A stretch of DNA of 64,000 nt from an uncultured Gemmatimonadaceae bacterium (GTDB lineage Bacteria; Gemmatimonadota; Gemmatimonadetes; Gemmatimonadales; Gemmatimonadaceae), in NCBI GenBank assembly GCA_963781585.1, contig CAWAGQ010000006.1:64001-128000 (forward strand), in the 5' to 3' direction. The first letter of the stretch is position 1. Each line of letters starts with the position of its first letter. Below are positions 45,408-52,448 of the stretch, piece by piece. The notes under the pieces are model-generated. The model saw only the letters and a program-made list of their open reading frames with translations. It made no database searches and was not told the DNA's origin. Made by a program: the position numbers and the translations under genes.

Positions 45408-46616
45408 ATGAACGTACTCGAAACGCCTACATCTGGTTTCCTTTCTACCGCCGTCGATGAGGCTGGTACCGAAGCGCCGTCCTTTTCGTTCGATGACCTC
45501 GGCTTGGGCCCGGAGCTGTTGCGGGCCGTGCGTGATGCCGGCTACACGGAGCCGACCCCGATCCAGCGCGACGCCATCCCGCTCGTGATGGCCGGACGGG
45601 ACGTCATTGGCCTGGCACAAACGGGTACTGGAAAGACCGCGGCCTTCACGCTCCCGATAGCCCAACGCCTTTCGCGTGGACCGAGCCGCATACGGACGCT
45701 GGTTCTCACGCCGACGCGGGAACTTTGTCAACAAGTGGAGCGGAGCTTCAAGGCCTACGCCAGCCATACCAATCTGCGCATCTCTTCCATATATGGCGGG
45801 GTTCCCATGGGTCCGCAGGAACGCGCCCTGCAGGCGGGTCTGGATGTGGTCGTTGCCACGCCGGGACGCCTGATCGACCATATCGAGCGACGCAACGTGT
45901 CACTGGAGTACCTCGAGATCCTGGTGCTGGACGAAGCCGATCGGATGCTCGACATGGGCTTTGCTCCGCAGATCAACCGGATTGTGGCGGCCATTCCTCC
46001 GTATCGTCAAACCCTGCTGTTCAGTGCGACCATGCCTCCCGAAGTGGAGGTGCTCGCCAGAAAGTACATGCGTCGGCCGGTTGTGGTGCAGGTAGGACGC
46101 CGATCCATGGCGGCCACCACCGTGAGCCATGCGGTGTACCCCGTGCGGCGTGACCGGAAGAGCGACCTCCTTGTCGAATTGCTCAACAAGCCGGAGATGG
46201 ACGCCGTCCTGGTATTCACGCGAACGAAGATCGGCGCCGACCGGGTAGTCAGACACCTTCACCGCGCCGGGGTCGAGGCGACCGCGTTGCATGCAGACAA
46301 GCGGCAGGCGGAACGCGACCGGGCGCTTGACGATTTCAAGCAGGGTCGGATCCGTGTTCTGGTGGCGACCGACATCGCGCAGCGCGGCCTGGATATCAGC
46401 GGCATCTCGCACGTGATCAACTACGACGTGCCACAGCAGGTCGAAGACTACGTACATCGGATTGGCCGCACCGGGCGAGCTGCCCAGACCGGTGATGCCT
46501 ATACCTTCATGGCACCGGACGAGATCGCCATGGTACGACTGATCGAGCGGGTGATCGGCCAGGAGATCGAGCGCGTTTCGGTTCCGGGGTTCGATTTCGG
46601 GACCATCGCCGAATAG
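45408..46616 (+). CDS. DEAD-box RNA helicase (RhlE-like)
   Basis: Q motif PTPIQ, AQTGTGKT, PTREL, DEAD, SAT, HRIGRTGR. Confidence 0.95.
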   Translation: MNVLETPTSGFLSTAVDEAGTEAPSFSFDDLGLGPELLRAVRDAGYTEPTPIQRDAIPLVMAGRDVIGLAQTGTGKTAAFTLPIAQRLSRGPSRIRTLVLTPTRELCQQVERSFKAYASHTNLRISSIYGGVPMGPQERALQAGLDVVVATPGRLIDHIERRNVSLEYLEILVLDEADRMLDMGFAPQINRIVAAIPPYRQTLLFSATMPPEVEVLARKYMRRPVVVQVGRRSMAATTVSHAVYPVRRDRKSDLLVELLNKPEMDAVLVFTRTKIGADRVVRHLHRAGVEATALHADKRQAERDRALDDFKQGRIRVLVATDIAQRGLDISGISHVINYDVPQQVEDYVHRIGRTGRAAQTGDAYTFMAPDEIAMVRLIERVIGQEIERVSVPGFDFGTIAE

Positions 46617-46704: not shown

Positions 46705-47124
46705 CTATCGACGGACGCGCCCCAGTCTGGACACCGTGATGGTGTCGGCGGCTCCTCCCTTTGACACGATCAGTCGAGTGTTGGCCGCTCCAAATCCCAT
46801 GCCATTGGGAGCGTACGCGATGGAGTCGCGCGTTGCGGCGAGGCGCACGCCATGCACGACACCCAGCGGCCGGCGCGCTATGGTGTCCGGCCCCGCGAAC
46901 ACCGTGAGGGTGGCGGTGGTCGAGTCGGCGGTGACGGCGGTAGTGAGTCCGCGACGGATGGCGGCATGCCGCGCGGTCGAGAGCAACGCCACGACCGATG
47001 CCGCGGCCGCGTCAGTGGCAACGCGGTCGCGGAGGGCGGCGAACCGCGGCACAGCGATGACGGTCATGAGGCCGATCACCGAGAGTGCCACTCCAAGCTC
47101 TAGCAATGTTGTACCGCGTCGCAT
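46705..47124 (-). CDS. GspH/FimT family pseudopilin
   Basis: MRRG|TTLLELGVALSVIGLMTVIAVP prepilin cleavage motif; ARHAAI; ITVSRLGRVR. Confidence 0.82.
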   Translation of the reverse strand: MRRGTTLLELGVALSVIGLMTVIAVPRFAALRDRVATDAAAASVVALLSTARHAAIRRGLTTAVTADSTTATLTVFAGPDTIARRPLGVVHGVRLAATRDSIAYAPNGMGFGAANTRLIVSKGGAADTITVSRLGRVRR

Positions 47125-47322
47125 GATGTCGCTCCGAGGGGGGCGGCCAAGATGCCACGGCTGGCCGCCGCGAGCGACATCATCAAAGCGCACGCGGTAC
47201 CTTGAGCACGCAAGGCTGACGCCCTCCCGTAGGGCGGGCTCCCGCCGGGCACGCCTGGCGGGTATCCTCTGAAGGGGCCGAAGGCGAAAGGCCCTGGTTC
47301 GACGTCGCCAACACACCCCATC

Positions 47323-47559
47323 ATGCGCATACGTCCGGCAGTTCCGCTCCTCGTACTCGTGGCGTGGTCGTGCCTGCCCTCGAAACAGGACGTGGACTCG
47401 GCGCAGGCGATCATCGAAATCGGTGACGCACTGAACGACATACGGCAGACTCAGTCAGACCTCCAGGAGCAGATCGACTCGCTGCGTGTCGAGGTCGCAA
47501 AGCGCGATTCTGTTGTCCGGCAGTTGGCGAACCTGGCGGGTGTGGTAATACCACCCTGA
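47323..47559 (+). CDS. Small coiled-coil lipoprotein-like protein
   Basis: Signal peptide with AWSC; LQEQIDSLRVEVAKRDS coiled coil. Confidence 0.65.
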   Translation: MRIRPAVPLLVLVAWSCLPSKQDVDSAQAIIEIGDALNDIRQTQSDLQEQIDSLRVEVAKRDSVVRQLANLAGVVIPP

Positions 47560-47606
47560 GAAATAGGTTTCTCTCGACAGGTGTTCACCTTCGTCAACGC
47601 GTGGCC

Positions 47607-47843
47607 ATGCACATAACCATCCGCTATTGCGTCGTCTGACACTACGAACCACGGGCCACCAGTTTGGCGGCCGAGATTCGCGAACGGTATCCCGACGCCA
47701 GGGTCGATCTGTTCGAAGGAAGTGGCGGTGTCTTCGAGGTGACCCGCGACGGCGTGCTGATCTTCTCGAAACGGGAACTGCGTCGTCACGCGGTCCCCGG
47801 CGAGGTGATGGCGCTCCTGGCTTCGGGCGGCTCGGCGAATTGA
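47607..47843 (+). CDS. SelT/SelW/SelH (Rdx) family selenoprotein, CxxU, with UGA at 47637-47639 read as Sec
   Basis: MHITIRYCVV(U)HYEPRATSLAAEIRERYPDARVDLFEGSGGVFEVTRDGVLIFSKRELRRHAVPGEVMALL...; the IxYCxxU and GGxFEV...IFSK Rdx motifs flank the in-frame TGA. Confidence 0.9.
47654..47672 (+). promoter_or_regulatory. Bacterial SECIS-like hairpin
   Basis: GGCC-A-CCA[GTT]TGG-C-GGCC begins 14 nt after the UGA, with G in the apical loop. Confidence 0.6.
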
Positions 47844-47922
47844 CGCGACGCGGCGCCGGGTTCAGAGCGGATCTGCCTCGCGCGGGGCGCCCGCCGCACA
47901 TGGTCCGAAGGATCTGAGTCCG

Positions 47923-49002
47923 ATGCGTATCGCGATCTCGACCGGCGGCGGCGACGCGCCCGGACTCAACGCGGTGATTCGCGCGGCCGCCCTCTCTGCC
48001 ATCAGCCGCGGCTGGGAGGTCCTCGGGATCTGTCGCGGATACTACGGCCTCCTGGGCGAGGACGAGATCATACCGCTGACGCGCGAACGGGTGCGTGGCA
48101 TCGCGCATCTCGGCGGTACCATCCTCCGAACGACCAATCGTGGCAACCCGTTCCTCTTTCCCGTCCGACAGGCCGATGGCACGCATCGATCGGTCGACCG
48201 CTCGGACGACATCCTCAGCAACGCACGCGGGCTCGGTATCGAGGCGCTGATCTCCATTGGTGGGGATGGATCGTTGGCGATTGCGCAGCGGCTTTTCGAA
48301 AAGGGGATGCACGTGGTTGGCGTGCCCAAGACGATCGATAACGACGTGAGCGGTACGATCACGACTTTCGGATTCGACACCGCGGTCAACACCGCGATCG
48401 AAGCGATCGACAAGCTTCACACCACCGCCGAGAGTCACGACCGCGTGATCGTGATGGAGGTCATGGGTCGGAATGCGGGATTCATCGCGTTGCACGCGGG
48501 TGTGGCGGGAACGGCGGACGTCATCCTCATTCCCGAGATCCCCTATCAGATAGAGAGTGTCTGCGACAAGATCTGGTCCCGGGATCGCAGTGGACGGCAC
48601 TTTTCGATCGTGGTTGTAGCAGAGGGAGCCTTCCCGGTGGGCGGGCAGGCGGCCCTTGTGGGAGACGAGGTGCCCGGAGAGGAGCGCCGCGTGGGAGGTA
48701 TCGCGGGCCGCATTGCGTGGGAGATTCAGGAACGAACCGGGAAGGAGGCGCGTTCGCTGGTCCTGGGCCACCTGCAGCGCGGTGGACCGCCCACGGGTTA
48801 CGATCGGTTGCTGGCCACCCGCTTCGGTGGTGCGGCGGTGGAGGCGGTCGAACTGGAGCAGTGGGGGTTCATGGTGGCACTGCAGTCGCCACATATCGTC
48901 GCCATTCCCATCGCGGAGGCGATTCGCGAGCCGAAACGCGTGGATCCGCAGCACGATGTGGTGCGCACCGCTCGGGCGACGGGGATCTCGTTTGGCGACT
49001 GA
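47923..49002 (+). CDS. pfkA: 6-phosphofructokinase (ATP-type GGDG motif)
   Basis: TGGGDAPGLN, GGTIL, IGGDGS, PKTIDND, EVMGR, LGHLQRGG. Confidence 0.93.
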   Translation: MRIAISTGGGDAPGLNAVIRAAALSAISRGWEVLGICRGYYGLLGEDEIIPLTRERVRGIAHLGGTILRTTNRGNPFLFPVRQADGTHRSVDRSDDILSNARGLGIEALISIGGDGSLAIAQRLFEKGMHVVGVPKTIDNDVSGTITTFGFDTAVNTAIEAIDKLHTTAESHDRVIVMEVMGRNAGFIALHAGVAGTADVILIPEIPYQIESVCDKIWSRDRSGRHFSIVVVAEGAFPVGGQAALVGDEVPGEERRVGGIAGRIAWEIQERTGKEARSLVLGHLQRGGPPTGYDRLLATRFGGAAVEAVELEQWGFMVALQSPHIVAIPIAEAIREPKRVDPQHDVVRTARATGISFGD

Positions 49003-49079
49003 GGACCCTCGTCGCGGCTGTGTCGGGTTCCCGGGACGCGGAGCGAGGACCCCAGCCCGAGAGCCGGTGTACAGCCGAA

Positions 49080-49155
49080 CGAGCCCGAGGACGGGTGTCC
49101 TGCTTGACCGATCGCACTGTCCCCCGGTGCGGACGTCCTCGGGCTCGACCTTTTT
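49080..49155 (+). terminator. Long-stem hairpin with U-tract (terminator or small structured RNA)
   Basis: 14-bp perfect inverted repeat CGAGCCCGAGGACG/CGTCCTCGGGCTCG enclosing 40 nt, followed by CCTTTTT. Confidence 0.5.
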
Positions 49156-49284
49156 CCCCGCCTGTCTGGAAGTAACTGCCGCCACTATGTTTGCAGCGCG
49201 ACGGCCGGGGATCAGGGATCGGCACCGATCGTGCGGAACCAGAAGCGCCGGTATTCTCAGTCGATGGGTCGCTGGAGCAAGCCG

Positions 49285-49668
49285 ATGCCGCACCGAATAC
49301 TGAAGATCGCGAGCAGCGCCGGAGTTTTCTGGTTGGCGGTCCCCGCCGCGGTCGCGCAGAAACCTGTGCCCAAGCCGCTCGTGCCGACGCCACCGCCGTC
49401 AAAGGTGGAGATTCCCCGCGACTTCCGGCCGCCTCAGGGCATGTGCCGGGTCTGGATCGACAAGGTGCCGGCCGGTCAGCAGCCCGCGCCCACGGACTGC
49501 GCCAGCGCGATTCGCAACCGGCCGCCTAACGCGCGGGTGATATTCAGCGAGGATTCGCTGCGGCGTGTCAGGTCGAGGGGGCGGGATAGCGTGCAGGACG
49601 GCAAGGCAGCCGCGCGCAAGCCCGACCGCAAACCGGTGAAGAAGCCTCCCGAGCCGCCGGGATCCTGA
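49285..49668 (+). CDS. Exported Pro-rich hypothetical protein
   Basis: Signal-like N-terminus; IPRDFRPPQGMCRVWID...QPAPTDC motif; start uncertain (49231-49285). Confidence 0.65.
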   Translation: MPHRILKIASSAGVFWLAVPAAVAQKPVPKPLVPTPPPSKVEIPRDFRPPQGMCRVWIDKVPAGQQPAPTDCASAIRNRPPNARVIFSEDSLRRVRSRGRDSVQDGKAAARKPDRKPVKKPPEPPGS

Positions 49669-49757: not shown

Positions 49758-52448
49758 GTGCTGCGCGACGTCCACGACCACGCTCTTCCGTCCGATCACG
49801 GAGCCTTCGTCGCCGGCGGGCCGCCCGGCGGTCGGATCATCGTCATCGCGCCCACGCGCGCGGCCTGCGAGACGATCGAGCTCGCGCTGGCCCTGCGTCT
49901 CGACACGGTCCTGGAGCGGGAGCACGGTGCCGAAATCCGCGCCCTGGCACGGGACCGCCGCGCCTTCGGCATCGTCGCTGGCACGGGGACGGGCAAGACG
50001 CTCGCCATCCGGCCCATCGCCGAAGAGCTCCTGGGGACCACCGGGCTGCGAGTGGGGGTGGTGAATCGCGAGCGGGAGGCGACACCCGAGACGCCGACCT
50101 GGAACGTCATCATCGTGACCACCGGCATCGCGAGGCGCTGGTTCGAGGATGGAGACATCCTCCCCGCCGACACGCTGGTGGTCGACGAGATCCACCAGAC
50201 GTCCGCCGAGCTCGAACTGTGCCTCGCCCTCGGCCGGCGCGTGGGATGTCGCTTCATCTGGCTCTCGGCCACCGTCGACCCGCGGTTCTACGCGCGATAC
50301 CTGAATTCGGCGGCGGTGATCGACAGTCGCGCGTTCGATGCCGCAAGAGCCGCCACCGTAAGAGTTGTGCGAGACGACGTCGCCGCGTTCTTGAGTGATC
50401 GCTTTCTGCAACACGTCGTGCGGCGCCGTCGCGGCGTTGGCGTGTTCCTTCCAACCCGAGCCGCGGTGGAGAGCGTCGCGGCCGACGTTGCGGCGCGCTT
50501 TCCACGCATCACCGCCGCGTTCTACCACGGCGGCGAGCCGATTCGCGTCATCCGTCCTTTTCTCGAGGACGGGGTGGCGAAACCCTACCTGCTCGCAATG
50601 ACCGCGGCGGGGCAGAGTTCCATCAACGTGAAGGGGCTGGATACCGTCGTCATAGACGATTCGCGCTTTGCCAACGTAGTCGAGAAGGGGCGCAACGTGC
50701 TCACGCGCCTGCATCTGGGCGCCAACGAAATCCTGCAGATGGCCGGGCGCGTTCATGGGCGGGTCGAGAACGGGGAAGTCTTCATCCTCAGCGATCGCGA
50801 CCTTCATTTCGACGCGCTGCAACCGACCGAGCCGGAGTTTCAGCTGGCTGGCGACTCGGAGCGCGTGGCGATCACCTGCGCGGCACTCGGCGTGCGAGCC
50901 GATGCGCTCGAGTTGCCGGTCCCCCTCGATCGCCGCGCCTACCGGAGTGCGCTGGCGTTGCTCGAGGAGCGCGGCATCGTGTCGGAAGGACGGCTCACGC
51001 GCTACGGCCGGCTGGTCGAAGCAACGCCGGTGGAGCGACCATGGGCGGAGCTGCTCGTCCATGCCGACGACGGTCTGCTGCCGTATGTCGCCGTCATGGC
51101 GTCGACCGAGTCACTTCACCGCATGACTCGTGAAGACCGGGACCTGAGCGGCCTGGTTGTCCCGGGGAGCGATCACCTCACGGCGTACAACGTATACGCA
51201 GACGCGTACACCCGGTCCGGATACGTCGGTCAGGTTTATGGCCTCGCGCGACATCTCTTCGACGAAGGGACGATCGCACAGTGGGCAGAGCGCCGCGGGG
51301 TGCTGGTTCGCGCGATCGAGGACTCGGCGCTCGCCGTGGCCAGTGTATGTCGCGCGCTGGAGGTGGAGCTCCCGCGCACGCTGCCGCGGGCGACCGATGA
51401 GGTGCGCCGCGGCTTCTGCGAGCTGGTGGCGCGGGTCATGCCGTTCGCGCTGGTGATCGACGAGGAAACGGTCGACGGCCAGGAGGCACGCGTCTCGAGG
51501 AGCAGCGTCTGTGGCTCGTGGGGAGCGATTGCGGGCGATCTGCGCTACTTCGCCGACCGTTTCGGCATCCCTCGCGCGAGCATCGAAGGCACGCAGCTTC
51601 CAATGTCCCTGGTACGGAAACACGCAGTTCGGGAGTCCGCCGAGTTGGCGTTCGACCCGACCGGAAAGAGGGACAGGCTCGTGCTGCGGAGCCGAGTGAG
51701 CTATTTCGGTTTCGAGCTCGAGCGGGCGGAGCAGCCGGTGGGGACATTCCCGGTCGACCAGGGGGCCCGGGCCCGCCGCCTTCTGGCTGAGGCGCTGGCC
51801 AGTGGAGAAGCGCGACACCCAGCCGTGCGGAGATACCGTCAGGTGATCGAGGAGACGCGTGAGCTGTTCCGCCGTTCTGGCGGGACCACGCCGCGGCTGG
51901 GCATCGCCGAGCTCGCGGCGATGTACGAGACGGCGCTGTCGGGCGTGATGTCGATGGAGGAATACCGTGCGGCGCCGCTGCGTCTTCGCCTGGACGAGCT
52001 GGTGCCCGAGGCAGAGCGCGAGCGGTTGCGTGATCTTCCGGACGCGGTCGAGCTGCGCGGCAAGTGGATCGGCATCGAATACGATCTCGAGGAGTCCGGT
52101 GCGGCGGAACAGGCGGACGCGAGTGAGTCGGGGCGCGGTGGTGCCGGAGATGCCGGCGGCAGCGGAGTGACGGCCGTCGCGCGGTTGCGGCTGCCGGAGA
52201 AGCTTGCTCGCGTGCTGACGGCCGACGAGCTGCCGGCGCTGGACCGGCCGCTGCGCTTCGTCGTGACGCGCGGGGCGCGGGGCGCGGTGCGCGCACCGAC
52301 GCTGGAGGCGATTCGTCGGGCGCTCGACGAGCCATCTTCGACGGAACGACCCGCTGTCGCCGGTCCTGTGGCGCGTCCCACCCACCCTCGGCGTCAGCGG
52401 CCGGAGGAGCGACGTCTGCCGCGCGGCCGCGGGCGCCGTCGTCGTTAG
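49758..52448 (+). CDS. DEAH/HrpB-like SF2 helicase
   Basis: AGTGTGKT, VVDEIH, SAT, VFLPTR, QMAGRVHGR, GRLTRYGR. Confidence 0.82.
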   Translation: MLRDVHDHALPSDHGAFVAGGPPGGRIIVIAPTRAACETIELALALRLDTVLEREHGAEIRALARDRRAFGIVAGTGTGKTLAIRPIAEELLGTTGLRVGVVNREREATPETPTWNVIIVTTGIARRWFEDGDILPADTLVVDEIHQTSAELELCLALGRRVGCRFIWLSATVDPRFYARYLNSAAVIDSRAFDAARAATVRVVRDDVAAFLSDRFLQHVVRRRRGVGVFLPTRAAVESVAADVAARFPRITAAFYHGGEPIRVIRPFLEDGVAKPYLLAMTAAGQSSINVKGLDTVVIDDSRFANVVEKGRNVLTRLHLGANEILQMAGRVHGRVENGEVFILSDRDLHFDALQPTEPEFQLAGDSERVAITCAALGVRADALELPVPLDRRAYRSALALLEERGIVSEGRLTRYGRLVEATPVERPWAELLVHADDGLLPYVAVMASTESLHRMTREDRDLSGLVVPGSDHLTAYNVYADAYTRSGYVGQVYGLARHLFDEGTIAQWAERRGVLVRAIEDSALAVASVCRALEVELPRTLPRATDEVRRGFCELVARVMPFALVIDEETVDGQEARVSRSSVCGSWGAIAGDLRYFADRFGIPRASIEGTQLPMSLVRKHAVRESAELAFDPTGKRDRLVLRSRVSYFGFELERAEQPVGTFPVDQGARARRLLAEALASGEARHPAVRRYRQVIEETRELFRRSGGTTPRLGIAELAAMYETALSGVMSMEEYRAAPLRLRLDELVPEAERERLRDLPDAVELRGKWIGIEYDLEESGAAEQADASESGRGGAGDAGGSGVTAVARLRLPEKLARVLTADELPALDRPLRFVVTRGARGAVRAPTLEAIRRALDEPSSTERPAVAGPVARPTHPRRQRPEERRLPRGRGRRRR

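Follow-up and report, generated by a model that had tools for sequence, protein, structure and literature searches.

Introduction

The SELENOW-like proteins with a CxxU motif (PF10262) form a prokaryotic selenoprotein family that PMC13188914 describes as 'predicted with high confidence'. The family is also listed in PMC9312934, as one of the most abundant in marine metagenomes, and it has been catalogued among the bacterial families since at least 2006 (PMC1794560), in a survey that ascribes to SelW-like proteins few Cys forms in Sec-using organisms. In Campylobacter jejuni, the small selW ORF (80 aa) was missed by annotation owing to its UGA, and the read-through of this codon is backed by Ribo-seq and MS (bioRxiv 10.1101/2022.11.09.515450). 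According to PMC10650576, the exact functions of the Rdx family remain unknown.

Here, we describe a gene of this kind in a 64,000-nucleotide stretch of DNA from an uncultured Gemmatimonadaceae bacterium (contig CAWAGQ010000006.1 of assembly GCA_963781585.1; this whole stretch is hereafter the window). The initial annotation of the window had proposed an Rdx/SelW-family gene with a UGA recoded as selenocysteine (Sec), a SECIS-like hairpin behind it and a possible redox link to glycolysis, and had named as checks a search for the Sec genes, the bSECIS criteria, an alignment with Cys-containing homologues and the synteny with the phosphofructokinase gene (pfk). The recoding proposal is strongly supported by family models, a conserved TGA, Sec genes and the hairpin. 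Taking all the evidence together, our reading, held with confidence, is that this conserved-UGA CxxU gene likely yields a 78-residue SelW/Rdx selenoprotein and that its adjacency to pfk likely reflects an inherited gene order.

The gene is a fresh member of a known selenoprotein family, real but ordinary. It resembles the prokaryotic SELENOW-like family in its size, its CxxU close to the N-terminus, its GxFEV motif, its UGA with a downstream hairpin and its co-occurrence with selABCD; it differs in its lineage, the Gemmatimonadales, and in its recurring place in front of pfk. Like C. jejuni SelW, it is a small ORF that annotation misses owing to the UGA and it passes the Campylobacter-named model NF041051, but read-through is supported there by Ribo-seq and MS whereas here it is deduced by comparing sequences. 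At the level of listings, literature searches (Gemmatimonad* with selenoprotein or selenocysteine; selenoprotein with phosphofructokinase) returned no paper on the SelW of this lineage or on its pfk neighbour. The main texts of PMC13188914, PMC13326102 and PMC9312934 do not mention Gemmatimonad, nor does that of PMC13188914 mention phosphofructokinase; the survey supplements or BSepDB may list these genes.

Reading frame, family and predicted fold

The features of the gene are the following:

47607..47843, + strand: probable Rdx/SelW-like selenoprotein gene, 78 codons plus a TGA stop (profile models, alignments, AlphaFold model)
47628..47639, + strand: CxxU redox motif, Cys8-Val-Val-Sec11 as predicted, with the TGA at 47637-47639 in frame
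47727..47741, + strand: GxFEV motif typical of Rdx, residues 41-45 (G41, F43 and E44 do not vary among the 48 sequences aligned)

The frame opens with ATG at 47607, carries TGC (Cys8) at 47628 and TGA as codon 11, and then runs through 67 open codons to a second TGA, its stop, at 47841-47843. The UGA takes the slot of the second cysteine of CxxC, giving C-V-V-U. The frame read by the initial annotation, with the UGA at the second position of the redox motif and 67 codons beyond it, is thereby borne out, as is its view that only shadow ORFs are found here: none of the three overlapping ORFs in other frames (47627-47917, +; 47451-47789, -; 47455-49293, -) has a Pfam match. A consensus scan of 47100-49300 for promoters and terminators found no site of either kind, about 0.2 and 0.8 being expected by chance.

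Family membership was scored on the 78-residue product, read through the UGA with U given as C. This product reaches 61.5 bits against PF10262 Rdx (cut-off 22.6), 55.3 against TIGR02174 CXXU_selWTH (cut-off 34.2) and 89.9 against NF041051 SelTWH_Campy (cut-off 88), and the 67 post-UGA residues match PF10262 by themselves (40.3 bits vs 22.6). The tGxFEI(V) motif, as defined in PMC10650576, is found in the C-terminal half as G41-V-F43-E44-V45. Five solved Rdx-family sequences match the protein, and the alignments with 2LJK, 2FA8 and 2OKA all place a Cys opposite the UGA; these three are CxxC proteins of 104-117 residues, in contrast to the 78-aa CxxU protein described here, with which they share 24-32% identity. 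At the sequence level, 47607-47843 is confirmed to encode a member of the Rdx/SelW-SelT-SelH family, exceeding all three profile cut-offs and with its CxxU after the predicted first strand.

Structure prediction is consistent with this assignment. AlphaFold gave a poor model from the single sequence (pLDDT 51.3) and we used instead a model based on an alignment of 48 sequences, namely the query and 47 of the 93 available loci, which reached a pLDDT of 85.4 and predicts a thioredoxin-like fold, in which strand 2-8 and helix 14-27 are followed by three strands and a closing helix. Foldseek searches with this model put SelW-related proteins on top, thioredoxins following with weaker matches. The predicted fold is the same as that of bacterial Rdx proteins of the Cys type, 2FA8 from Agrobacterium and 2OBK and 2OKA from Pseudomonas (TM 0.83-0.86 for these three), together with 3DEX and 2P0G (TM 0.83-0.87 over all five), with lower scores against human MIEN1 (2LJK, TM 0.72) and mouse SelW (2NPB, TM 0.65).

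Conservation of the in-frame UGA

The TGA is a constant feature of the gene. The family sample contains the gene in 54 of 81 genomes, with one TGA in 55 of the 56 matches; the sole exception is a TGC paralogue, and its genome also has a TGA copy. The phylum sample contains it in 95 of 151 Gemmatimonadota genomes, with one TGA in each of the 96 matches. The codon lies in the CxxU slot at all 55 family TGA loci, and also at the 29 best-scoring new phylum loci, which were checked; at the same 55 family loci the frame stays open for 59-73 codons past the UGA. A start codon stands exactly 10 codons 5' of the UGA at 91 of 95 loci (79 ATG, 12 GTG). The distribution of the gene also follows that of the Sec machinery: Rdx is found in 52 of the 61 genomes with selA or selC against 2 of the 20 with neither. 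Both exceptions are incomplete genomes (72% and 86%); selB scores above cut-off in G040, and G034 shows a partial selB match at a contig edge. Fisher's test for the co-occurrence gives p 1.5e-9 but, related genomes being non-independent, we do not rely on it. The unpublished genomes G007 and G034 each account for one row of the family counts and one of alignment A1; no conclusion rests on either.

Two other readings of this codon have to be weighed. The TGA might be a nonsense mutation or a read error, making the locus a pseudogene or a Cys-type Rdx, a reading favoured to some extent by the fact that the hairpin is unexceptional on its own. However, the same TGA recurs in the 55 of 56 and 96 of 96 matches across many genera and in a second, 90%-identical copy on contig C2 of the assembly, the frame downstream is conserved and open, and the gene tracks the Sec machinery; we therefore give this explanation almost no weight. 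Alternatively, the UGA might be read as Trp or another standard residue under an alternative code, or the protein might start past it. Eight database homologues that were retrieved look this way at first sight, since six start downstream of the UGA and two carry W there. Against this, (i), TGA also stops the Rdx gene itself at 47841-47843, (ii), a tRNA-Sec with a TCA anticodon is present, (iii), the N-terminal strand and Cys8 are conserved, as is the start 10 codons before the UGA and, (iv), a post-UGA fragment would be devoid of the redox motif. This second reading is in our view scarcely credible, and the W-bearing or late-starting database forms are best explained as errors of gene callers. 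The two Trp forms are P0007 and P0009, in which TGA was probably translated as W, and some database versions of the gene are already named selT/selW/selH-like.

Codon 11 is thus very likely read as selenocysteine, as judged from these sequence comparisons. The lineage keeps Rdx almost only as the Sec form, and appears to lose it when the Sec genes are absent.

Selenocysteine machinery in a mixed assembly

The search of the assembly (G000) for the Sec genes found all four. The selA, selB and selD matches score 564, 301 and 364 bits, all above cut-off, as does the tRNA-Sec gene selC (68.7 bits, TCA anticodon), and the four genes are all on contig C4. The selD gene (G000:C4:506107-507217, +) has an in-frame TGA of its own (UxxK), and the tRNA-Sec gene lies about 100 nt downstream of it.

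The assembly is a mixed bin, with 7.19% contamination. The contig pairs C2/C6, C5/C8 and C11/C17 are long duplicates at 88-91% identity (88-90% for the first two pairs), pointing to a mixture of two related populations. Between C2 and C6 the duplication extends for about 180 kb, with 90% identity, and C2 is the contig with the second Rdx copy, which has the same TGA. Because the bin is mixed, the C4 sel genes may have come from the sister population rather than from the cell to which C6 belongs. Genome G070, of the same genus, also holds selA, selB and selC.

The genome likely encodes further selenoproteins. Two AhpC/TSA peroxiredoxin-family genes (G000:C12:5416-5802, -, and G000:C14:83877-84266, -) each contain a single in-frame TGA, which forms part of a TxxU motif. 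A codon-bias scan pointed to both, and a family search, in which 2 of 7 AhpC/TSA matches of the genome carry one TGA, confirmed them; the scan did not place the Rdx and SelD genes among its best 140 of 598 candidates and is no census of selenoproteins. In a genome-wide motif-plus-SECIS scan, 1960 of 7790 motif candidates passed, chance matches swamping the signal. In the molybdopterin and CMD families (three matches each), the aligned regions contain no internal TGA. ARAGORN also reported a 'tRNA-Stop', resembling a tRNA and with TTA as anticodon, at G000:C14:156433-156507 (-), which may be a false call.

The hairpin downstream of the UGA

The initial annotation had noted a SECIS-like hairpin 14 nt past the UGA, and it is indeed present:

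47654..47672, + strand: candidate SECIS-type hairpin of the bacterial kind, stem of 7 pairs interrupted by one mismatch, loop GUU (47662-47664)

The bSECIS consensus of PMC13188914 allows a loop of 3-9 nt that starts with G followed by G or U, a stem of 4-16 bp, a distance of 16-37 nt from the UGA and an MFE of at most -7.5. With its 3-nt GUU loop 22 nt past the UGA, its 7 pairs and its folding energy of about -11.5 kcal/mol, the hairpin lies within all these limits. Taken alone, it is weak: its single-sequence stability is modest, with z -2.27 in a 27-nt window, and longer windows do not exceed shuffled sequences in stability (z between -0.4 and -0.95 at 51-84 nt, +0.91 at 134 nt), and our own loose version of the bSECIS definition passes 77 of 400 random TGA triplets of the genome and is imprecise, since it missed the genome's selD.

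Comparison between genomes is more telling. Over 54 aligned sequences, 99.5% of the hairpin cells are paired, against only 17-51% in slid-structure controls. Fifteen cells are changed on both sides of a hairpin pair, a figure that none of 500 shuffles equals, and three pairs show a double change, a count that 42 of 500 shuffles reach. The pairs +15:+33 and +18:+30, both of which join third codon positions, rank 1 and 3 of 1485 such column pairs in mutual information; their double changes are Watson-Crick in 7/7 and 5/6 cases. On a pfk tree of 49 leaves, from which the 6 of 55 loci without a full pfk were left out, 7 changes of the first pair and 8 of the second are dispersed over the branches. 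The hairpin codons show a synonymous divergence of 0.30, as compared with 0.53 downstream. The structure extends to 28 loci outside the family, where the inner five pairs are present in 28/28 and the outer two in 25/28 and 23/28 (the outermost being the 23), the loop always beginning with G followed by U or G. Because these compensatory changes fall at synonymous sites, the hairpin at 47654-47672 is very likely a SECIS.

Gene order around pfk

Two further genes of the window define the neighbourhood:

47923..49002, + strand: 6-phosphofructokinase (PF00365), mixed-substrate/group III-like, with the motifs GGDG and PKTIDND; usually the next gene downstream
47323..47559, + strand: 78-aa upstream ORF of no known family (no Pfam or NCBIfam match), part of the conserved neighbourhood

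In the initial annotation, the Rdx gene stood 79 nt upstream of pfkA. The distance and strand hold, the two genes being separated by 79 nt without overlap, but the label 'pfkA' is loose: the phosphofructokinase scores 293.1 against TIGR02482 PFKA_ATP, below the equivalog cut-off of 371.35. Its best model is TIGR02483 PFK_mixed (426.1, just under the cut-off of 430.55), and it passes NF002872 (377.2 vs 253).

Synteny with pfk proved to be conserved across the order. Within the family, pfk comes right after rdx (at most 300 nt) in 50 of 55 loci, with a median gap of 31 nt. The same arrangement is seen at 22 of the 24 loci from two further families of the order (21/23 and 1/1), as against 0 of 4 loci in other orders. 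The 23 adjacent loci of the phylum sample have a median gap of 1 nt, 22 being within 30 nt and 8 overlapping, and because of this tight spacing rdx is probably co-transcribed with pfk. For the 78-aa upstream ORF, tblastn finds a match no further than about 1.5 kb upstream at 25 of the 55 family loci.

What this adjacency means is less straightforward. The initial annotation had suggested a redox link to glycolysis, and the rdx-pfk pair of the Gemmatimonadales could in principle act as a selenium-sensitive control of glycolysis: either Rdx would control PFK by redox chemistry, as a dedicated regulator, or ribosomes terminating at the rdx UGA under selenium scarcity would cut the coupled translation of pfk and so, through translational coupling or polarity, make pfk expression selenium-dependent. 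The frequency of the adjacency and the spacing just described speak for such a link, all the more as the adjacency is kept in two other families whose PFKs are only about 60% identical to that of the window; PFK also has one conserved Cys, C214. However, each gene persists without the other. Of the 27 family genomes that lack rdx, 21 keep the pfk orthologue, 19 of these with other genes of the neighbourhood, and an HMM of the Rdx loci detected no intact rdx at these 21 pfk loci, the best fragment, upstream of pfk in G005, scoring 3.3 bits (E 0.23). Conversely, in 4 of the 55 family loci rdx is directly followed by the gene that normally comes after pfk. When the genomes of these four loci and one genome from another family, all without an adjacent pfk, were searched, two of the five had no PFK-family match (G048, 96% complete, and G041, 89%), the other three having a lower-scoring PFK elsewhere. 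The cysteines of PFK likewise do not follow rdx: the mean number per protein is 2.59 with rdx (n=79, a few possibly counted in both samples) and 2.52 without (n=21), and C214 is kept in 74/79 and 19/21, respectively. Finally, the adjacency is lacking at all four loci of other orders, and in the window itself the 79-nt gap leaves no overlap. We thus consider a dedicated selenium-sensitive control of glycolysis improbable, and the redox link of the initial annotation is not upheld.

The independent loss of rdx and pfk from one conserved neighbourhood favours inheritance: the simplest reading, and a likely one, is that the pfk adjacency is an old gene order of this bacterial order from which either gene can drop out. 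As a counterpoint, the spacing to pfk in the related families is tighter than a chance gene order requires. At the G005 locus (L083, G005:C88), a weak likeness to the Rdx C-terminus about 100-200 nt upstream of pfk is possibly a decayed remnant; this genome is 98% complete, and selA, selB and selC were not found in it.

Possible mechanism and significance

A working scheme may be suggested for the Rdx protein. Following the bacterial pathway described in PMC1794560, a complex of SelB, GTP and Sec-tRNA would bind the GUU-capped hairpin 22 nt downstream and deliver Sec at codon 11; when selenium is absent, the product would end at residue 10. In the predicted fold, Cys8 and Sec11 lie where strand 1 gives way to helix 1, and the pair, by analogy with the family, would alternate between selenenylsulfide and selenol/thiol forms. 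It may thereby reduce disulfides or otherwise oxidised cysteines of putative partner proteins, as part of general redox upkeep, PFK probably not being a dedicated substrate.

The importance of the locus lies mainly in annotation. Gene callers cut the gene at the UGA or read it as Trp, as they did in 8/8 database homologues, and because of this a selenoprotein of about two thirds of the sampled Gemmatimonadota (95/151) is under-recorded. The set of loci also illustrates cleanly, from nature, how compensatory synonymous changes maintain a bacterial SECIS. Were the link to pfk functional, it would offer a testable first substrate, or first physiological role, for a bacterial SelW, but the evidence leans against it.

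Several variant loci and neighbouring genes are worth recording. L011 (G020:C37:106607-106822, -) is a longer Cys-type (CxxC, TGC) Rdx paralogue with no pfk neighbour, the Sec form being in the same genome. At L126 (G151:C9), Rdx has a Cys-rich C-terminal extension and runs 119 codons past the UGA. The Rdx frame of L063 (G029:C3) diverges after about 50 residues (the HMM covers 1-51), which suggests a frameshift or an assembly error near the C-terminus. In the window, pfk is followed by a 145-aa ORF (49231-49668, +) that has no Pfam match and a conserved two-Cys core, GMCR...PTDC, and that comes directly after rdx where pfk is missing. Next to it, 49758-52448 (+) encodes an 896-aa helicase-like protein with a weak DEAD match, conserved downstream of pfk in many relatives. 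Upstream, a GspH-like pseudopilin gene (46705-47124, -) and a DEAD-box helicase gene (45408-46616, +) also recur in relatives.
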